NCBI GenBank assembly: GCA_964609155.1
Contig: CAZSRF010000007.1
Span: 839-64,838 of the forward strand
Origin: an uncultured Gammaproteobacteria bacterium
GTDB lineage: Bacteria > Pseudomonadota > Gammaproteobacteria > JAGOUU01
Direction: 5' to 3'
Length of the DNA stretch: 64,000 bases
The translations under genes were made by a program, and so were the position numbers. Shown one piece after another: positions 1 to 14,732 of the stretch (positions are counted from its first letter, which is position 1; each line of letters starts with the position of its first letter). The notes below the pieces were generated by a model that saw nothing but the letters and a program-made list of their open reading frames with translations, was not told the origin of the DNA and ran no database searches.

Positions 1-85
1 CAACGGAAACAACCAATACTAACCATGTAATCACAACTTTTAAAGATAAAATTGCTGCTTTAAAAAATAACTTTTATGGTCATGA

Positions 86-2281
86 TTAAAAACCACTTTC
101 TCGCAACATGATGGCGACAGCTCGCCGCCAAAACCTAGACATTATACTTACTTTTTCGCCATATAGATATAACTTTCCTTTTACAGAAAAATTAGGCAAA
201 TCTTTTATTGACACGTTACTTGGCTTAGCTATAACCTGATAAACTGCATCATGTAAAATTAAATTTTCAACTTCTCTTGTACGCTTAGTTTCTGCATTTT
301 TGTTTAAAAAAGTTGTCAACTCACCACCATATAGTGATGCTAAATATTTATTATCTAAATATTTACTGCCTGCCTTATTAAATCTTATTAATTGCACCTG
401 TATTGGAGCAAATCTCATTCGTTCAAAATAAAATTGTCCGTTAATTTTTGTAATATCCACATTAAGCCTAGCCACATCATGTTCATCCATATAACCCGTT
501 ATAGATAATGTTCCAGGATCGCTGACAGTAAACAAATAATTATTTTGATCATGCCAGGTATTTACCTTCAAATATTTTGATATATCTGTAATTTGACCAT
601 CATAAGGAGCAGCTATAGTAAGTTTAGCTTTTTCAGCTAAAGCACCTGCCAACTCAGATTCTTTGTCCATCAGCTCTTGTGCAGATGCCTGCTTCTCACC
701 TAAAACACGCCCCAAACCACTTTGTTCTCGTAATTTATTTTTGATAATATTTAACTCAACGGTTGACTTATTTACTTGATAATCGATTTCATCTGAAGTA
801 AATGCTGCTAAAACAGCATCTTTTTTCACCCAATCCCCCTGTTTAATATCTAATTTTTTTAACAACCCAGGGTTAAGAGTATATATTTTTACTTCTTTTT
901 CATATGTTAAAACAGCAGGAGTTTCGATTCTATTTTGCAATGGTACAAATAAAAGAATAACTCCAAATACAAAAATTGTTATTGTGACTAATGCTCGAGT
1001 AGGTAAATGTTCTGTTTTTTTCAAAAGCGCAGCACAAGCTATTGCTTCTTTATAGGCTGGATTAAGAATAAACAAATAAACTTCTGCTATCATCAATACA
1101 ACACCAAGTATTTTGAAAAAATAAAAATACACAATAGTAGCCACAGATAGATACAAACTAATTCTATATACCCATGAGAAATAAGCATAAAATAAATACA
1201 GCCTTAAGTCAGATTTTGAACATGGAACAGGTTGAGCGCCCTTGATTCCAAACAACTGCTTTCTAAAGTACCATGTAGCCAAGTTGTAAGCTTTAGTTTG
1301 CAAATTATCAGTCGCTAAAATCTCAGAGATAATATGATACCCATCATACCGTAATAATGGATTAGCATTAATTAAAATTGTGCTTATTATTGAAACAGTT
1401 GGTATATAAATTAAAATACTACGTAACACTCCATCATCTATCAACCCCCACAAAAATAGAGCTATAATGGCTACCCCAGTTTCTGCAATAATACCAGCAC
1501 TGGCAACAACAGTTCTATGATGTCGACTTTTAAGACGCCAAGTATCTGTTGTATCTGTATAAAAAACAGGCCAAAAAACTAACAAAGCTATCCCCATAGT
1601 AGGTATTTTACAACCATAATACTTTGCTACAAACGCATGACCAAGCTCATGAAAGAATTTGGTTACAAGTACAGCGACAGATAAAATAAACATATTCTGT
1701 GGTGTAAATAAATAGTCAAACTGACCTATAAATTCACCCCATTGTCGCATTATAAGATACAATCCCATCACAAGAATAAAAAATAATACATATAAAGTTT
1801 TTTTGGTAAATAAAACTTTGACATATTTCAACATGTGCCTCAAAGCCTTATCTGGCTTAAACAACGGCACTTGCAAGAATAAATATTTTTGTAGCGCTTT
1901 TTGAATAATATGTTTTTTACTGTCAGAATGTACTTGGTATAGATAATCACCAGTATTGCTTTGATCTATCTCTAGTAATTCGTTCAATTTTAAGAACTCT
2001 AATATTTTCTCTATATTTACAGTATTTATTTTTGTGGTCGTCGTAGCATTAACTATTTTACAAATATCATCTGGATTACCAAGATACCAGTGAGATATTA
2101 TTTCAAACTCCTGCCATCCAATACGAAAAAACTTTTCTTTCAATGGATCATGAATAACCCATGTTGGAGCACCAAATTTGTCATGCCCTCCATCAATAAT
2201 ATCAAGCTCCGATCTTAAGTTTGGTAAAGATTGAATAGCTACAGTGGCCATAATTAAATTCCAATTGTTCGGCGCAACCAA
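86..2281 (-). CDS. Site-2-protease (peptidase M50) intramembrane zinc metalloprotease fused to a C-terminal HlyD-family membrane-fusion (periplasmic adaptor) domain
   Basis: HELGH motif lies in a hydrophobic segment (FFHELGHAFVAKYYG). A second S2P motif NxxPxxxxDG is present (INANPLLRYDGYHI). Several TM helices precede a C-terminal ~290 aa with lipoyl half-motifs (KQGDWVKKDAVLA ... IAAPYDGQITD), a coiled coil and a beta-barrel region typical of HlyD. It overlaps the upstream gene by 28 nt, which suggests translational coupling. Confidence 0.7.
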   Translation of the reverse strand: MVAPNNWNLIMATVAIQSLPNLRSELDIIDGGHDKFGAPTWVIHDPLKEKFFRIGWQEFEIISHWYLGNPDDICKIVNATTTTKINTVNIEKILEFLKLNELLEIDQSNTGDYLYQVHSDSKKHIIQKALQKYLFLQVPLFKPDKALRHMLKYVKVLFTKKTLYVLFFILVMGLYLIMRQWGEFIGQFDYLFTPQNMFILSVAVLVTKFFHELGHAFVAKYYGCKIPTMGIALLVFWPVFYTDTTDTWRLKSRHHRTVVASAGIIAETGVAIIALFLWGLIDDGVLRSILIYIPTVSIISTILINANPLLRYDGYHIISEILATDNLQTKAYNLATWYFRKQLFGIKGAQPVPCSKSDLRLYLFYAYFSWVYRISLYLSVATIVYFYFFKILGVVLMIAEVYLFILNPAYKEAIACAALLKKTEHLPTRALVTITIFVFGVILLFVPLQNRIETPAVLTYEKEVKIYTLNPGLLKKLDIKQGDWVKKDAVLAAFTSDEIDYQVNKSTVELNIIKNKLREQSGLGRVLGEKQASAQELMDKESELAGALAEKAKLTIAAPYDGQITDISKYLKVNTWHDQNNYLFTVSDPGTLSITGYMDEHDVARLNVDITKINGQFYFERMRFAPIQVQLIRFNKAGSKYLDNKYLASLYGGELTTFLNKNAETKRTREVENLILHDAVYQVIAKPSNVSIKDLPNFSVKGKLYLYGEKVSIMSRFWRRAVAIMLRESGF

Positions 2282-3618
2282 GAAATCGGTTTTCTAAATA
2301 TATAATATATCAACAGTACCCTGTTGCCATATATTTTAGCTGTACCCTTTATTCCAAATCGTTCATCTTTATTGAATTCATTTGTAAAATCTGCAACACC
2401 GTAATAAGCAAGTTTATCATCAGGCTGTAAGTCTGCATGTTTACTGATAAAATTTATATTAGCTTTCATTGGAGACAATGGCTTAGGATTGGGATAAAAC
2501 ACAACTTGTGATCTATCTGGCATTTCAATAAGATCATCAATTGGAATAAAAAGATCTAATTGTTTATTACTCTCACTCGCCAAGAGCATCACACGTTCAC
2601 CAATTTCTACTGGTCGACCTAGCCAGTTTTTTGGGTCTGAAAATATTACTGTACCAGCAAATTCAGCTCTTATCACAGCTCGATCTAACAATAGCTTATT
2701 ATAATTTGCTTCTATTTCTGCAATTTTAATGTCATCACTTAACACCCTTAGGTCGTTTTTGGCTTGAGCATCATTGTAGGATTGTTGATATCCTTTCCTA
2801 TACTTTTCTCTAACGACATCAAGACCTTTCTCTGATTGATCATATTTATTCTGCAAAGTAATTGTATCTAGCTTAAATAACGGTTGTCCTGCTCTAACCA
2901 TCTGATTTGGTAGAACATAAATCTCTTTAATCATTCCTTTTATTGACGAAGCTATAACTGTAGGGTTTTTAGGAGAGATTTCCGCAGGAACCAGTACTGA
3001 ATCCCGAATGGGATAAAACAAAACTAATAAAATTATAAATATAATAGTCTTCCTAGACTCATGAACTTTTTTTAATTTTTTATAAGAAGATACTTTATTT
3101 TGATATAAACGCCATATGTTTGAATAATATGTCATTACTTTCGGTATTTTTTCAATTACTTCAGGCGTCCAGTTCTCTGATGCTAATAGTATCAAACCAC
3201 CTTTCCTGGCACCTGGAAACAACACAGACACCATATACTTATACATTTCACCATCGTAACTTGCTATTGCGTCTTTAAATTTATCGATAGAAAAAAATGT
3301 TACTTTATTAGTTTCAAAAGCCAATTTTGGTAACAAGACTTTTTCCCATAAATGAATGTATGGAGCATGATGATTAACCACGCTAATAGCAGAGACTGCA
3401 AAAATCTTATAACCGTGCAAACTTTCTTGCCAAACAATAGCTTGATCATAAGGAATAATTTTTTTAGTATGATTTACTATATGAAAAGCTAATTGGGTGA
3501 TACTTGTAGACGTGAGTGCTTTACTAATTAACCAGGTTAAAGTTTTATCGTAACTATTTTCCTTTTGTTCTTCTGCGTTTGATTGGTTAGATGGAGTAAA
3601 TTTTATTTCTGTAGCCAT
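2254..3618 (-). CDS. HlyD-family secretion/adaptor protein with a ~190-aa N-terminal cytoplasmic domain and a single TM helix
   Basis: A TM segment (IIFIILLVLFYPI) is followed by lipoyl motifs (GMIKEIYVLPNQMVRAGQPLFKLD ... IRAEFAGTVIF), a coiled coil and a barrel. There is a 2-nt gap to the next gene. Confidence 0.7.
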   Translation of the reverse strand: MATEIKFTPSNQSNAEEQKENSYDKTLTWLISKALTSTSITQLAFHIVNHTKKIIPYDQAIVWQESLHGYKIFAVSAISVVNHHAPYIHLWEKVLLPKLAFETNKVTFFSIDKFKDAIASYDGEMYKYMVSVLFPGARKGGLILLASENWTPEVIEKIPKVMTYYSNIWRLYQNKVSSYKKLKKVHESRKTIIFIILLVLFYPIRDSVLVPAEISPKNPTVIASSIKGMIKEIYVLPNQMVRAGQPLFKLDTITLQNKYDQSEKGLDVVREKYRKGYQQSYNDAQAKNDLRVLSDDIKIAEIEANYNKLLLDRAVIRAEFAGTVIFSDPKNWLGRPVEIGERVMLLASESNKQLDLFIPIDDLIEMPDRSQVVFYPNPKPLSPMKANINFISKHADLQPDDKLAYYGVADFTNEFNKDERFGIKGTAKIYGNRVLLIYYIFRKPISWLRRTIGI

Positions 3619-3620
3619 GT

Positions 3621-4466
3621 TTATGGCCCTTTAAATGTAGCATTACCACTTTCCCCTACAAAAAGCCCTGTGCTCTCACTAGTTATTTTACCAATCAACT
3701 TCACTGATTGACTAACAGCATCAGCATTGTAAATAATTTTGGTGACTTTTGCTTTATATTTACTACTAGTCTCTTTTATTGAAACTTCAAAATCGTCATT
3801 AATTTTTATCCAACTTAACCATTCTGATGGTACAATTGCAGTTACGTCTAAGTTCTTATTGTCTATTATGCTAAACAATTTATCACCTGCTTTTACAGTT
3901 TCAAAGTTTCTTACCTTTAATTCCATTAGTTGACCATCAAATGGAGCTTTTTGTATACAACGTTCAGCTTTGTATTGTGCAATCTTCAGCTTAGCTAATG
4001 AACTTTCGTAATCTCCTTGGCTTGTTAGTAATTCTGTTTTACTAGCACCATCTAAATTTGCTAGATTCTTCATAGCTTGATATTTTTTTTCATTAACAAT
4101 ATTTTCTGCTTTACTTTTTTCTAAATCTGCCGTGTAAACCGTACAATCAAATTTTAATAATACGTCATTTGCTTTAAAGTAATCACCTTCTTTGACTAAA
4201 ATTTCTTTAATTGTTCCATCTATTTCTGTCGAGATGACTGCTTGATTAGTTGTGGTTAATACTGCAGGAACTGCATACTTATCTATATTTAATTCACTAC
4301 CCAATGAAGTTATATGTGAATTTGGCAAATTAGTGGAATTATTTTGATTGGCTGTACTTTTATTATGTTGATTATTAACATCATTAGAAATAAACGTATT
4401 TTGCGCTTGCAAAATACTAATCGTAGTAATCATGACTAATGTAATTTTTTTTACTTTATGCTTCAT
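3621..4466 (-). CDS. Short periplasmic adaptor, biotin-lipoyl/HlyD_D23-like, with signal peptide
   Basis: The N-terminal signal is MKHKVKKITLVMITTISILQA. Lipoyl-like halves are present (IDGTIKEILVKEGDYFKANDVLLKFD ... APFDGQLMELKV) with a coiled coil between them. A 4-nt ATGA overlap joins it to the OMF gene. Confidence 0.6.
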   Translation of the reverse strand: MKHKVKKITLVMITTISILQAQNTFISNDVNNQHNKSTANQNNSTNLPNSHITSLGSELNIDKYAVPAVLTTTNQAVISTEIDGTIKEILVKEGDYFKANDVLLKFDCTVYTADLEKSKAENIVNEKKYQAMKNLANLDGASKTELLTSQGDYESSLAKLKIAQYKAERCIQKAPFDGQLMELKVRNFETVKAGDKLFSIIDNKNLDVTAIVPSEWLSWIKINDDFEVSIKETSSKYKAKVTKIIYNADAVSQSVKLIGKITSESTGLFVGESGNATFKGP

Positions 4467-6595
4467 AGCACGGCACTAATTAAATTTTTCTCTATATTTT
4501 TAGTATTATTTATCACACGCACCTGAGTTTGCATTTTACCTCTTGCTTGTGGCTCAGAGTTTGGTATCTGCTTTGGAAGCACTGAAGCAGGAGCAGGTGG
4601 ATTAACAGGTTCTACAGGAGTTGAACTAGGTTGTTGTTGCACAGGTTCTGGTGTAACTACAGGAGTAACTGGTGTATTAGATGGCAAAGGAGGATTAACA
4701 TTTCCTTCAATCTGGGTAGTTACAGGAGCAACCGGTGCACTAGATGGCAAAGGAGGATTAACATTTCCTTCAGTCTGGGTAGTTACAGGAGCAACAGGTG
4801 TACTAGATTGCAAAGGAGGAGCGACATTTTTTCCTTCATCCGGTGTAACTACCTTTAATTTTGCCTGTGCATTCTCAGGACGTCGGCGTATTCTCGAAAC
4901 TTTGTTTTTTTTATGATTGGATTTAATCTTAGCATCATTCTTAGATTTATCTTTCATGTTAATTACAGATGTATTATCCAATTTAGCTTGTTTCAACTTA
5001 GGCGACTCTAATCGAAGACCTTGCATTGGGATATCATTAATAGATTGGGATTTAGGTTTATTTATTTTTGATTTATTAAATTTAGCATATTTGCCCTTAA
5101 TCTCATCTAATGTTATATAAAACCCTTGCTTGCTTTTAAGAGAATCTGCTATCTCTTTAGCAATTGCTTTTATTGGCTGATTTAATGTAGTTAATTTATG
5201 CACACTGTTATAACCAACAGAATCTAATAATTCATGATAAGCGGAGAGTTTATCAAAATGCGCAGTTAAAACCCTTAATTTAGCGTCAAAATAATTAATT
5301 TTAGCATTGTATACTTCTAATTGACTTGCCAGATCAGATACCGAACGTTTTTTAAGATTTTCATAGACTATCTCATTATCTTCATAAAAACCTTGAGCCA
5401 GAACACTATTTCTTTCTGCCTCTAATAATCTCACATAAGCAATATTAACTTGAGTCAAAATAGATACTGCCAAAGCCTGACGACGAATTTTGCCAAGATC
5501 TTTATTTGCATTAGCTTTTTCTAAACGAGTATATTTACTAAAAAGATCTAATAAATTACCCGTCAATTGAACTGCTGTCTGCTTCCAAAAATTATAAACT
5601 AGAAAAGATGTGCTGTCATGAAATGCGCCATAATTTAGAGTAAAATTTGGTATCATTTGAAGCCGAGCTTTATAAATCTCATCCATATCAATACGGTTTT
5701 TTAACAACTCCTCTCTTATTTCAGAACGATTATGCAAAGCTAACAATTCGATTTGCTGTATATTATACGGTAAAGAGTTTAACTGTATTTTATCATCATA
5801 AGCCGTATTTAATTCAATTTTTGAGGCTGTTGGCACATTAATCAATAACGCTAATGTTACCACCGCTCTTTCAAGATTATTTTTCATTTTATTTATTTCG
5901 GTAGATTTATCCCATAATGCTATCCGAAATTCAGCTGCTTTTTCTTTAGATATTAACTGCTCTTTTTCCTGTTTTTTAGACTTTTCTATAGCTTGATCAA
6001 TTTCTTTGCTAAGTAGATTAATTTGTGGAATAATATTATTAGTAACGTGACTAGCCCAATATGCGGTACGTGTATCTCGAACAATCTCTTGTAATAGGGT
6101 TTTCTTTTTTTCTTCAAGCATTAAATATTCATTGGCTTTTTGTTTTGAGTTATAGTAGCTAATCCCAAAATCAAGAATACTCCATGACAATTGTAAATCT
6201 AATGTATTCGTATATTTATTACGCGACAAAGATACTTGATTTGTATTAGGCGATAAAACTTTACCTGGTCGATCACGGGCTGTGTAATTAAAATTTGCAA
6301 CAAGATCTGGAAGCATTTCATAGGTAACAGCACGATGCTCTATCAAACCTACTGCAGCTTCTTGAATTTTTTGTTTGTAACTTAAATTATATTTAATAGC
6401 TCTTGCAATTGCTTCTGAAAGGGTCAATGGCTTGATTAATGGTTCAGTAGTACGATAACGCTCAGAACGATCTAGATATAATGCTTTTTTAATCTCATCT
6501 TTAGTTAATGGTTCAGGATTAACTGAGCAACCATTAATAACCAAAATTAACAATAAAAAAGGTAAAAAAACTAACTTAGTATAATTGCTCTTCAT
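4463..6595 (-). CDS. TolC-like outer-membrane efflux factor (OMF) lipoprotein with a ~240-aa Lys/Pro-rich C-terminal extension
   Basis: A lipoprotein signal ends in Cys (LLILVINGC). Two OEP-like halves carry extensive coiled-coil and beta content typical of the NodT/TolC family. The C-terminal tail is K-rich and is followed by a tandem 21-aa Pro-rich repeat. Confidence 0.7.
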   Translation of the reverse strand: MKSNYTKLVFLPFLLLILVINGCSVNPEPLTKDEIKKALYLDRSERYRTTEPLIKPLTLSEAIARAIKYNLSYKQKIQEAAVGLIEHRAVTYEMLPDLVANFNYTARDRPGKVLSPNTNQVSLSRNKYTNTLDLQLSWSILDFGISYYNSKQKANEYLMLEEKKKTLLQEIVRDTRTAYWASHVTNNIIPQINLLSKEIDQAIEKSKKQEKEQLISKEKAAEFRIALWDKSTEINKMKNNLERAVVTLALLINVPTASKIELNTAYDDKIQLNSLPYNIQQIELLALHNRSEIREELLKNRIDMDEIYKARLQMIPNFTLNYGAFHDSTSFLVYNFWKQTAVQLTGNLLDLFSKYTRLEKANANKDLGKIRRQALAVSILTQVNIAYVRLLEAERNSVLAQGFYEDNEIVYENLKKRSVSDLASQLEVYNAKINYFDAKLRVLTAHFDKLSAYHELLDSVGYNSVHKLTTLNQPIKAIAKEIADSLKSKQGFYITLDEIKGKYAKFNKSKINKPKSQSINDIPMQGLRLESPKLKQAKLDNTSVINMKDKSKNDAKIKSNHKKNKVSRIRRRPENAQAKLKVVTPDEGKNVAPPLQSSTPVAPVTTQTEGNVNPPLPSSAPVAPVTTQIEGNVNPPLPSNTPVTPVVTPEPVQQQPSSTPVEPVNPPAPASVLPKQIPNSEPQARGKMQTQVRVINNTKNIEKNLISAVL
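4650..4860. repeat. 63-bp tandem repeat of about 3.3 copies, in frame, encoding the Pro-rich tail of the OMF
   Basis: Near-identical 63-nt units begin at 4671, 4734 and 4797 (ggtg[t/c]a[t/c]tagat[g/t]gcaaaggagga...). The encoded unit is PVAPVTTQ(T/I)EGNVNPPLPS(S/N)(A/T). Confidence 0.85.
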
Positions 6596-6836
6596 ATTCT
6601 TCTTATTTGCTTTGCTTATTTAATATAAAAATTATACGTCTATGTATACATTATAGATGGTATTTTTTTATCTTAAAGTTTATAGTTACAAACAATTACA
6701 AAACATGAAATAAACACTTAAAATTTAAAATAATAAAACTAACTCTAACGAATGTTATACCAAAAGATTATTAGAATCTTTTAGTATTACTTATTATAAT
6801 AATAATCAACAACCACTACACCCTATATACAGCCTA

Positions 6837-7403
6837 ATGACTAATTTAAGCAATGCATTTCTATTCTTAACTAACTTTTTATTTGACTTTTATATTTCTC
6901 TTGTGCTGTTACGTTTTATACTTCAGTTAGTTCGAGCTCCTTTTAATAACGATATTGGCCAGTTTATTATTAAATTAACCAACCCGGGTGTATTATTATT
7001 TCGAAAATTTGTACCGGGTATCCGGGGTATTGATTTCGCGACCGTTGCGCTAGCATATCTTTTAGCTATTTTGAAAATGCTAATGGTCGTTGTTTTCTCT
7101 ACCCGAGGTTTCTTACCTGTTTATGCAAATTTTCCTGCCTATTTATTATTAGCATTCATATGCCTAATTGAGTTGACTTTAACAATTTATTTTTGGGGTA
7201 TCATCTTACGAGTTATACTAAGCTTTATGGTTAGTAGCTCACCATCTGTTTATAATAACCCTTTTTATACTATGGTTTACTTACTAACAGAGCCAGTATT
7301 AAGTTTTATCAGAAAATTTGTACCATTAATTGGCGGATTTGATCTATCACCAATGATTGCTTTACTAATGATAGCGGTATTAAGAATAGTCTTTAATGTT
7401 TAA
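6837..7403 (+). CDS. yggT: YggT/Ycf19-family integral membrane protein
   Basis: Two YGGT repeats are present (…LTNPGVLLFRKFVPGIRGIDFA… and …LTEPVLSFIRKFVPLIGGFDLSPMIALL…). Confidence 0.75.
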   Translation: MTNLSNAFLFLTNFLFDFYISLVLLRFILQLVRAPFNNDIGQFIIKLTNPGVLLFRKFVPGIRGIDFATVALAYLLAILKMLMVVVFSTRGFLPVYANFPAYLLLAFICLIELTLTIYFWGIILRVILSFMVSSSPSVYNNPFYTMVYLLTEPVLSFIRKFVPLIGGFDLSPMIALLMIAVLRIVFNV

Positions 7404-7412
7404 CGAAAGTGA

Positions 7413-7772
7413 TTAATGCACTAAATGTTTTGAGCGCGGGATAATAAAATGGTTATAAGGAAAATATTCCAAATTACTTATTAAGTGTTTTATATCTCGC
7501 ACAGTTGGTAAGACTAATAAGTAAGTAACATCTTCCACCAACTCTTCGTAATCTTCGCCTAAGCTATTTAATAAAATAATTTCATGTTGATCACCAGACT
7601 CCCAACGTCTTAAAAAATCTTCAGCTAAAGATTTATTTGGGAAAGCTAAATAGGCGCGCTCTTCATTGATAGAAAAACACCAAGGTCCACCGACAACTTC
7701 ATCTTCGGTTTCTATTATAGGATCGTATATTGTATAAAATTCTATCTTTGCAGTTGGAACTTTATCGGCCAT
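7413..7772 (-). CDS. Hypothetical acidic cytoplasmic protein
   Basis: The ORF has good coding appearance but no recognisable motif. Confidence 0.35.
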   Translation of the reverse strand: MADKVPTAKIEFYTIYDPIIETEDEVVGGPWCFSINEERAYLAFPNKSLAEDFLRRWESGDQHEIILLNSLGEDYEELVEDVTYLLVLPTVRDIKHLISNLEYFPYNHFIIPRSKHLVH

Positions 7773-13061: not shown

Positions 13062-14732
13062 CTAATAGATAGTCAAAGGAGAAATCATTTCACCGCAAAC
13101 GTTTGATTGAGCTAGTGGAGCATCACTTTCTAATGGTATTGGTAATGGCTTTTGTTGAAATTTATAACAATGATAAGTTCGCATAGGTTTCACTGCGGCA
13201 GCCACATCTACTCCTGGTGCAACAGAATCTGCTACTCCAGCTACTCTAACTACTCTAACTACTCTAAGAGACGCTGGATAGTCTGAAGCATCAGGTAAAG
13301 GGCTAAATGCATCAATAGACGCTTTGCTGTTAGCAGTAAAAGACGCAGTATAAATTAGACCAAAAGCTAAATACTTTAAAACCCACACACTAGTTAACAA
13401 CGCCGAAACACCTGTCGCTACTCCCGTTGCATTACCTATGCAAAATAGTACCAACACACCTATAATTGTGTAGTTTATAATATTATTATACCATCTCTTA
13501 CTACCTAAATTTAAAGGATCTGTCGACGACTCAGCTTTCGTTCTATCTGCCGTCCCACTAAAGTATCTGTAGATGGTGTTTTTAATTGTGCCTAAAAACT
13601 GATATAAATTTTTGCCGTAAAATATACCATTTAAGCAACCAAGAACACTTATTATACCTGCTGATATTTGACTGGTAGTGATGCCAAAACCAAATAAACT
13701 TGTTAGTAATTGAAAAGATTCATTATAAAACCAAAGCTGAGCAAAAATAATCGCCGCTGCTGATAAACTAAGAGAAATCAAATCTGAGAAACCTAATTTC
13801 TTCCAACCAGATTCTGCAAAGAATTTTTTAAAACTTAAATAAGTCTTGTAACAAATTGGCTTAAATAATGCTATATTGGCCAAAGCAGTAACCGTTGCAA
13901 AAAATACTGATGCGATAAATAACAAGGGCAATGATGCTGACATAACAGCAGCAGCGGAACCTAAGCCATAGATCAGCATCCCAGCTGGCACATAAATAGA
14001 ATTAAATAAAAGTATTCCCATCGCTACACCAGCGAATACAGTAATAAAATTTAGGACCTGTTCTTCAAAAGAATTTATTTTAGGTTTTTTTGCTGCTTTT
14101 TTCTCTGATTTAAAAAAATTTTTTATAAATGAATAAATATCATTTTTATACAAAAAATAACTTACACAAAAAGCAGATAAACCAAAAACTGCCACATTAA
14201 ATAATGTAAAAACTCCATAACCATAAACTGCTAAAGCTCCTTCTGGAAAGGCCACTAAGAAAGCCAAAGCGAAAGCTAAATATCCAAAAAAATCTTTAAA
14301 ACGACGACGGGAAATTCTTTCTTTTTTTAGATTATTATACTCATTCCATGTGAATTCTTTAGACAAATCATGCCTACTAATTAGATAATTAAGATTGTGT
14401 GCATCAAGATATCTATTGATAGCAACTTTGATTTTTTTTAAACCAGGATCTTTGTGATCACTAGTTACACTGTGCTTTATAAATGTCTGTAATAAAATAT
14501 TGGCAAAACCGTCCTGGGTTAAATCTTTGGCGTGTTCGCAGCAAGCAGTTTGCAAGTCCTCTATAAACTTGTAACGCTTGGTATTTATGGCACATTCAAG
14601 TATATCTAAAAGATTTGCGTCGTAGTAACCACTAAAAAAAGGAATTTTGTTGAGTTTACTTTTTACATAATAACCTAAAGCGCTTGATTCGGTTATTATC
14701 CTAATAGTTCTTAATTCTCTTTCTACACTCAT
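13062..14732 (-). CDS. Hypothetical polytopic inner-membrane protein with a ~150-aa soluble N-terminal domain and an Arg/Val short-repeat C-terminus
   Basis: About 8-10 hydrophobic helices follow a charged N-domain. The C-terminal RVVRVVRVAGVAD is encoded by a 9-bp DNA repeat. No known family was recognised. Confidence 0.4.
   Translation of the reverse strand: MSVERELRTIRIITESSALGYYVKSKLNKIPFFSGYYDANLLDILECAINTKRYKFIEDLQTACCEHAKDLTQDGFANILLQTFIKHSVTSDHKDPGLKKIKVAINRYLDAHNLNYLISRHDLSKEFTWNEYNNLKKERISRRRFKDFFGYLAFALAFLVAFPEGALAVYGYGVFTLFNVAVFGLSAFCVSYFLYKNDIYSFIKNFFKSEKKAAKKPKINSFEEQVLNFITVFAGVAMGILLFNSIYVPAGMLIYGLGSAAAVMSASLPLLFIASVFFATVTALANIALFKPICYKTYLSFKKFFAESGWKKLGFSDLISLSLSAAAIIFAQLWFYNESFQLLTSLFGFGITTSQISAGIISVLGCLNGIFYGKNLYQFLGTIKNTIYRYFSGTADRTKAESSTDPLNLGSKRWYNNIINYTIIGVLVLFCIGNATGVATGVSALLTSVWVLKYLAFGLIYTASFTANSKASIDAFSPLPDASDYPASLRVVRVVRVAGVADSVAPGVDVAAAVKPMRTYHCYKFQQKPLPIPLESDAPLAQSNVCGEMISPLTIY
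13241..13278. repeat. 9-bp tandem repeat (tactctaac-like) of about 4 copies, in frame within the membrane-protein gene
   Basis: The sequence is ctactccag ctactctaac tactctaac tactctaag. It encodes the (RVV)n block. Confidence 0.7.

Follow-up and report, generated by a model that had tools for sequence, protein, structure and literature searches.

To our knowledge, the delivery of giant adhesins to the cell surface is understood only for two-partner systems and for type I systems driven by ATP-binding cassette (ABC) transporters. In type I systems of this kind (LapA-LapBCE, SiiE-SiiCDF, MpIBP), a giant cargo of Ig, cadherin or VCBS repeats is encoded beside an outer-membrane factor (OMF), a single adaptor and a linked ABC gene; adaptor genes normally adjoin the gene of their inner-membrane partner, and LapA-type adhesins are known to be released by proteolysis. 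Peptidase-containing ABC transporters (PCATs), which act with an adaptor and TolC (e.g., colicin V CvaAB-TolC), carry a cytoplasmic C39 cysteine peptidase and handle peptides with an N-terminal leader. Among enzymes of RiPPs (ribosomally synthesized, post-translationally modified peptides), daptide MpaP and epipeptide EpeP (YydH) have an N-terminal RiPP recognition element (RRE) fused to a site-2 protease (S2P) core. In the daptide paper (bioRxiv 10.1101/2023.03.08.531785), the protease is termed an "RRE-dependent intramembrane peptidase" and the removal of the leader is ascribed to it, and EpeP is thought both to cleave and to export its peptide (review, PMC10885120). The locus that we compare with these systems is a four-gene operon in a 64,000-nucleotide stretch of DNA (hereafter, the window; contig CAZSRF010000007.1, positions 839 to 64,838) from an uncultured gammaproteobacterium. 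It encodes an OMF, two stand-alone adaptors and an RRE-S2P-adaptor fusion protein, and it contains no pump gene.

The operon, or cassette, consists of four open reading frames (ORFs) on the minus strand at window 86-6595 (Table 1). In order of transcription, they are joined by a 4-nt overlap, a 2-nt gap and, if the last gene is read from TTG 2281, a 28-nt overlap. Both the gene calls of relatives and a family alignment favour ATG 2251 as the start of the fusion, in which case the 28-nt overlap becomes a 2-nt gap. An earlier note on this DNA, made from the sequence alone, had described four tightly coupled genes; its coordinates and junctions are borne out, with only this start codon refined. 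Scanning the operon for promoters and terminators gave nothing above the expectation from shuffled sequence.

One and the same fusion polypeptide matches Peptidase_M50 at 33.7 bits against a cutoff of 27.2 and HlyD_3 at 23.7 bits against 22.2. Simple hydropathy gives about seven transmembrane (TM) segments, which put the N-terminal domain on the cytoplasmic side and the adaptor half on the periplasmic side. Sequence methods alone were inconclusive for the N-terminal domain, and structure models resolve every module. At its C-terminus the protein closes with ...(I/V)(L/I)RESGF (window 86-160; R 97%, E 100%, S 94%, G 92% and F 86% conserved), and the long adaptor also ends in a strongly conserved helix, ...LFRKPIxxxRxxIG (window 2254-2330); these terminal helices are a family-specific feature. 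The best protease hidden Markov model (HMM) is that of the daptide intramembrane metalloprotease, NF041824 (1.2e-43, residues 40-399, 149.8 bits against a cutoff of 300), followed by the YydH/LiaK epipeptide protease model, NF058609 (EpeP/LiaK; 4.5e-15, 56 bits against a cutoff of 225). The fusion is related to the daptide MpaP and EpeP/LiaK clades, yet it is not a member of either model's family, and unlike both it has a periplasmic adaptor at its C-terminus and, in diderms, an OMF as partner. Its S2P fold, with HExxH and NxxPxxxxDG motifs in membrane helices, matches RseP and SpoIVFB. Unlike these, it has an RRE and an adaptor and no anti-sigma context; no RseP-type NCBIfam model is matched by the fusion, and no PDZ or CBS domain was detected in it. 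We conclude that the fusion is not an RseP-type signalling protease and falls, within M50, into the RRE-dependent leader-peptidase branch, to which it adds a periplasmic adaptor. NCBIfam holds no dedicated model for it, and the Prokaryotic Genome Annotation Pipeline (PGAP) labels it "HlyD family efflux transporter periplasmic adaptor subunit".

The OMF matches PF02321 (OEP, 6e-27) in two stretches in Pfam, and hydropathy indicates an N-terminal signal peptide with a lipobox-like LVING preceding Cys24. Its C-terminus is an unusual Lys/Pro-rich tail of ~240 aa (window 4463-5200), inside which a 63-nt (21-aa) unit is repeated in tandem 2.6 times (window 4658-4820). The length of the OMF, 715 aa in a 99%-identical relative versus 710 aa in the window, suggests that the tail varies in length between close relatives. 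The short adaptor lies above the cutoff for TIGR01730 RND_mfp (99.7 bits; cutoff 94.9), HlyD_D23 (7e-17) and HlyD_3 (8e-17); according to hydropathy, it has a cleavable-type signal peptide without cysteine and no TM segment beyond the N-terminus. In the long adaptor, the HlyD_3 match (8e-9) is confined to the C-terminal half. Most of this anatomy had been anticipated by the earlier note, namely an OMF lipoprotein, two HlyD-type adaptors, an S2P with HELGH and NxxPxxxxDG in membrane helices, and a C-terminal membrane fusion protein (MFP) fold on the same polypeptide. All of these readings hold, the protease motifs having been read directly from the translation, and the extra cytoplasmic N-domain that the note placed on the second adaptor can now be read as a GAF fold.

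Neither a Walker A motif nor an ABC signature occurs in any of the four cassette proteins, and no ORF of the window contains the two together. A single major facilitator superfamily (MFS) gene is present in the window (58047-59231), 51 kb from the operon. The window begins 85 nt past the fusion gene, and close relatives show what lies beyond. In L095 (95% identical) and L096 (99% identical), two related loci, the next gene is convergent with the fusion and overlaps its stop codon, and the first 85 nt of the window are colinear with the relative's convergent gene. Since the next gene is convergent in these near-identical relatives, no pump follows in the operon. The earlier note had likewise seen no pump, while allowing for a transporter gene just beyond the window start; no co-directional transporter gene is found there in the relatives. 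We surveyed 75 loci in which the fusion could be called. An ORF with ABC motifs lies within seven genes of the fusion in merely six of them, with inconsistent size, strand and position, and no polytopic ORF of the size of a resistance-nodulation-division (RND) transporter is conserved near the cassette across related loci. The annotated operons examined (Burkholderia anthina, Azospirillum and E. coli) contain no ABC gene. The cassette therefore lacks the dedicated ABC gene that accompanies the adaptor in conventional type I secretion, and equally the energised RND, ABC or MFS transporter that accompanies the adaptor in tripartite efflux.

Such cassettes are widespread. The fusion family comprises 3,128 clusters at 50% identity in an exhaustive search (E <= 1e-30), and the best 150 clusters are nearly all about 700-760 aa long and matched in one stretch. 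A word-indexed search returned at least 1,776 full-length relatives, and the fusion is present in at least 599 GTDB species representatives. Among the hosts are Pseudomonas, Burkholderia, Rhizobium, Azospirillum, Methylococcaceae, Nitrospira, Scalindua, Pelagibacteraceae (SAR11), Coxiellaceae and Desulfovibrio, and plasmid copies are known from about 17 E. coli IncF plasmids, 8 Citrobacter plasmids, and Hafnia and Kosakonia. The architecture was previously called non-canonical; its pump-less anatomy holds, but with thousands of clusters it is not rare. Clinical and wastewater isolates of E. coli, Citrobacter and Hafnia carry, on about 25 plasmids (e.g., NZ_CP022155.1, NZ_CP081687.1 and NZ_CP104683.1), an identical five-gene operon (giant/TolC/adaptor/adaptor/fusion) flanked by insertion sequences.

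All four components are present in 37 of the 75 loci, with gene order mostly kept, and many of the incomplete loci are short contigs. A giant ORF (>=1,300 aa; in many cases nothing but the 10-kb flank limit truncates it) stands beside the cassette in 42 of the 75, usually directly upstream of the OMF gene and on the same strand. Precomputed Pfam annotation assigns Cadherin/Big_9 domains to the 3,761-aa giant of D. litoralis, and the 4,388-aa giant of Azospirillum canadense carries DUF4347/Big_13/Cadherin_4. On a Burkholderia anthina plasmid, the gene for a 3,302-aa DUF4347 protein overlaps the TolC gene by 4 nt; on E. coli pABWA45_1, a 4,457-aa Ig-like protein is followed by TolC, adaptor, HlyD and HlyD, and then IS1. 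In Burkholderia anthina, Azospirillum and the E. coli IncF plasmids, PGAP gives the same order (giant, TolC, adaptor, HlyD, HlyD), the genes overlapping or lying close together. In L098 (4994-6853) and L099 (5457-6071), the loci of Azospirillum argentinense Az39 p2 and of the plasmid from Burkholderia anthina, the immediate upstream neighbours of the gene for the LEPR/DUF4347 giant are small "tail fiber protein" genes (~205-228 aa). In L104 (5294-11702) and L105 (4656-10176), relatives with a long adaptor that is 43% identical, a PAS-GGDEF-EAL gene and a CheW/CheR/MCP/Hpt cluster come after the fusion gene, at a distance of 2 nt; these neighbours link the cassette to cyclic di-GMP (c-di-GMP) and chemosensory control of surface behaviour.

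The giants are Ig/cadherin/VCBS-repeat proteins, and every N-terminus that is visible consists of a basic stretch and then a conserved motif with the consensus P-x-(L/I)-(L/M)-A-L-E-P-R-(I/M)-(L/M)-F-D-G-A-A-V-A-T-A, which begins 3-78 residues from the N-terminus. The NCBIfam model NF012209 (LEPR-XLL) scores 16.7-19.5 on the giants, around its cutoff of 17. Of 45 large ORFs near the cassette, 25 have this leader motif within their first 160 residues, against 3 of 702 other ORFs (Fisher p = 3e-31), and all three of the latter are giants cut at a contig end. A cassette-adjacent E. coli giant starts MTTIKNRRLRPRAHRFALESRQLFDGAALAETA..., and a Phaeobacter DUF4347 protein, from a plasmid without the cassette, starts directly with DUF4347 and has no leader. 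DUF4347 was itself considered as a cargo marker and rejected as too broad, with 40 Phaeobacter and several cyanobacterial plasmids carrying DUF4347 proteins and no cassette. The marker of cassette-linked giants is the leader, not DUF4347. Both LEPR-XLL and DUF4347 are mentioned just in passing in the literature that we searched.

At their other end, the giants share the motif GK-P[SA]L[ST]xQ[LF], with an amphipathic stretch behind it. Made into an HMM, this motif picks up independent giants of Burkholderia (E 0.005) and E. coli (E 0.011), and the motif was seen in the giants of loci L028, L032, L033, L041, L045, L050, L055, L063, L064, L079, L081, L082 and L084, among others. Type I cargo is marked by a secretion signal at the C-terminus that stays uncleaved and usually comes after RTX repeats; no RTX repeats were found in the last ~1000 aa of four giants.

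The convergent gene next to the cassette in the window enters it only with its end. The translation of window 3-89 is TETTNTNHVITTFKDKIAALKNNFYGHD, followed by the stop codon, and it matches the C-terminus of a product of at least 308 aa in L095, which is cut by the contig end and contains Big_9 (2e-11) and Cadherin_4 (2e-8). The repeat gene adjoins the cassette also in L096; a more distant relative, L103, has a convergent gene with SdrD_B/Cna_B-type repeats, and a 69%-identical relative has a 57%-identical partial repeat protein and cassette genes on one contig of 7,193 nt. The contigs of the 95-99% identical relatives stop about 0.9 kb into the convergent gene. When the 308-aa fragment of the C-terminus was used as a homology query, partial proteins alone came back, and a metagenome scan gave no close relatives. 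That all assemblies break inside this gene is expected if it is long and repetitive. A by-eye likeness of the window fragment (...TTFKDKIAALKNNFYGHD) to the giants' C-terminal motif was dropped, as HMMs of both the general motif and its low-GC subgroup gave E values of about 70-110.

The reading that we favour, with a confidence that is evenly balanced, is that the operon is a PCAT-like trans-envelope device for a giant repeat protein, with an intramembrane protease in the place of the ABC transporter. By analogy with the binding of RiPP leaders by RREs, the cytoplasmic RRE would bind the LEPR leader, which would then be cut off at the active site of the S2P, close to the cytoplasmic face. The three adaptor paralogues, of which two have an inner-membrane anchor, would form a ring through which the giant is threaded on its way to the OMF channel, for secretion or for display at the cell surface. 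A gating or regulatory role in response to a small ligand may fall to the GAF domain, and energy could come from the proton-motive force or from a ratchet driven by extracellular folding of the repeats. In the window, the putative cargo would be the convergent Big_9/Cadherin_4 protein. The earlier note had suggested that regulated intramembrane proteolysis is coupled to trans-envelope export or signalling, one possibility being a membrane-anchored precursor as the substrate. Its central inference, an envelope-spanning OMF and adaptor set with an M50-adaptor fusion instead of a pump, is supported. The substrate is probably another, namely a soluble giant of repeats that bears a conserved LEPR-type leader at its N-terminus, such as is encoded beside the cassette in related genomes.

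All components of the cassette are of known kinds, and its overall logic resembles that of PCATs or type I systems. With PCATs it shares a conserved N-terminal leader on the cargo, a peptidase joined to the export machinery and a duct of adaptor and OMF. It differs in that the peptidase is an RRE-bearing intramembrane zinc S2P on an adaptor, in that there is no ABC or other ATPase, and in that the putative cargo measures thousands of residues. With type I giant-adhesin systems it shares the kind of cargo and its position beside OMF and adaptor genes, and adhesion as the likely role, and the giants do have a conserved C-terminal motif; unlike them, it has no linked ABC gene, three adaptor paralogues and an N-terminal LEPR-type leader on the giants. 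In Lap-type retention, a periplasmic LapG (BTLCP) protease and LapD, a receptor of c-di-GMP, are encoded beside the adhesin and its type I system; no LapG or LapD-type genes were noticed in the operons examined, although no dedicated search for them was made. Unlike RiPP pathways, the annotated cassette operons contain no short precursor peptide and no modifying enzymes. The literature that we searched, including reviews of tripartite systems, S2Ps and RiPP proteases, describes no M50-adaptor fusion and no link between LEPR-XLL and secretion, and the earlier statement that this is not a characterised system agrees with this. That the cassette represents an unrecognised and widespread secretion route of diderms, in which a LEPR leader is read by an RRE and cleaved by an S2P and the cargo leaves without an ATPase through a three-adaptor/TolC duct, is a broader and more tentative proposal, which we hold somewhat below even confidence.

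Several points weigh against the PCAT-like reading. We know of no S2P that translocates protein and of no precedent for moving thousands of residues without an ATPase, and every step of the mechanism proposed above is drawn from sequence, structure models and analogy. The daptide_HExxH score of 149.8 is far under the cutoff of 300, so that the homology to leader peptidases is at the level of the clade and not of the equivalog. A giant gene was not seen nearby in about one third of the adequately flanked loci. In the window itself, no LEPR-type motif occurs in any frame of the 64 kb; the role of the neighbouring gene as leader-bearing cargo is deduced from the family, its N-terminus lying in unassembled sequence. 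The conserved C-terminal motif of the giants might serve as a signal of the type I kind, read by an ABC exporter whose gene lies elsewhere, and a LEPR-XLL giant with C-terminal RTX domains has been reported (PMC10868602).

These last two observations favour the chief alternative, a Lap-like retention and release mechanism, in which the giant would be exported C-terminus first by an unlinked type I ABC transporter, and the complex of fusion, GAF-adaptor and OMF would keep its leader at the inner membrane, as a tether for the adhesin, until a cleavage controlled by the GAF domain or by inputs linked to c-di-GMP sets it free. The GAF sensor domain on one adaptor and the PAS-GGDEF-EAL gene and Che-like cluster of L104 and L105 would be in keeping with it. 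We nevertheless consider this mechanism unlikely. The cassette supplies its own OMF and three adaptors without a consistently linked ABC gene, and the operon moves as a unit, again without an ABC gene, on E. coli IncF and Burkholderia conjugative plasmids. The lack of RTX repeats in the C-terminal kilobase of the four giants also argues against it, and a cytoplasmic RRE would be an odd site at which to hold the end of a type I substrate that is exported last.

Two further explanations fit poorly. That the RRE-S2P cleaves a short precursor for the maturation and export of a small peptide (RiPP or bacteriocin), with the giants as mere neighbours, is very improbable. It would agree with the RiPP leader peptidases as the closest HMMs, with a weak match of the fusion to the NHLP bacteriocin HlyD model and with the combined cleavage and export proposed for EpeP (PMC10885120). 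However, the window has no leader-like motif in any frame, the sole recurrent leader-like sequence in 80 loci is that of the giants' N-termini (the three short carriers being contig-cut giants), and RiPP-modifying enzymes are absent from the annotated operons. We give still less credence to the idea that the proteins are accessory adaptors for an unlinked RND, ABC or MFS pump, or that the protease signals the state of the envelope through a membrane regulator in the manner of a classical S2P. PGAP does name all three proteins "efflux transporter periplasmic adaptor subunit", but three adaptor paralogues and an OMF without a linked pump in about 75 loci would be unique among efflux systems. Signalling is consistent with the fold shared with RseP and SpoIVFB, but it is at variance with the presence of an RRE, with the missing RseP-type and PDZ matches and with the lack of an anti-sigma/sigma gene pair in the annotated operons.

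The coordinates of the cassette and its parts are collected in Table 1. Upstream, the operon diverges from yggT (6837-7403; Pfam YGGT 3e-33), and the rest of the window is ordinary chromosomal core from a bacterium of ~32% GC, whose nearest database relatives carry the label Gammaproteobacteria, with genes for ClpB, GyrA, LeuS, SecD, RpsA, GuaAB, YhdP and BepA. Two ORFs in this part have no Pfam match. One, at 7413-7772 on the minus strand, encodes an acidic protein of 119 aa between yggT and a Ham1-like gene, and a 119-aa gene is called at the equivalent position in L096. The other, at 13062-14732 on the minus strand, encodes 556 aa with ~8 predicted TM segments and has no NCBIfam match either; a gene is called at the matching position in the 99%-identical relative, without a recorded Pfam match.

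Table 1. Window positions of the cassette genes, their domains and motifs, and the adjoining regions.
Feature	Position	Strand	Remarks
Convergent Big_9/Cadherin_4 repeat gene, last 28 codons and stop	3..89	+	Probable cargo; remainder beyond window start
RRE-S2P(M50)-adaptor fusion	86..2251	-	721 aa from ATG 2251; 731 aa from TTG 2281
C-terminal periplasmic adaptor domain of fusion	89..937	-	aa 439-721; lipoyl halves, alpha-hairpin, beta-barrel, conserved terminal helix ending RESGF
Site-2-protease membrane core of fusion	947..1852	-	aa 134-435; about 7 TM helices
NANPLLRYDG motif, Asp as third zinc ligand	1340..1369	-	Direct translation; N295, D303, G304 invariant in 93 sequences
HELGH zinc-binding motif	1637..1651	-	Direct translation; H201, E202, H205 invariant in 93 sequences
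N-terminal RRE of fusion (PqqD-like winged helix, beta3-alpha3)	1985..2203	-	aa 17-89; predicted cytoplasmic
Long adaptor, GAF-TM-adaptor	2254..3618	-	454 aa
Single TM helix of long adaptor	2989..3045	-	aa 192-210; Kyte-Doolittle peak 2.33; continuous helix 152-200 in model
GAF-fold domain of long adaptor, cytoplasmic	3169..3579	-	About aa 14-150
Short periplasmic adaptor (MFP)	3621..4466	-	281 aa
Outer-membrane factor (TolC/OEP family)	4463..6595	-	710 aa; first cassette gene in most related loci
Intergenic region upstream of operon, divergent from yggT	6596..6836	.	ORF map; presumed promoter region

The cassette is found in thousands of lineages, among them the most abundant bacteria of the sea, nitrifiers and the plant associates Pseudomonas, Azospirillum and Burkholderia, and on clinical E. 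coli and Citrobacter plasmids, and despite this spread it has been annotated just as an "efflux adaptor". If the giants are exported or tethered without an ATPase, the requirements for trans-envelope protein transport would change, and the orphan LEPR-XLL motif would gain a function. The recognition of leaders by RREs would extend from small peptides to proteins of several thousand residues. The five-gene operon of the E. coli plasmids offers a tractable experimental system. Should the proposed route prove true, it would deserve a number of its own among the secretion systems, or else count as a class of type I secretion that is fundamentally new, with a distribution from SAR11 and Nitrospira to Pseudomonas and the plasmids of E. 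coli.

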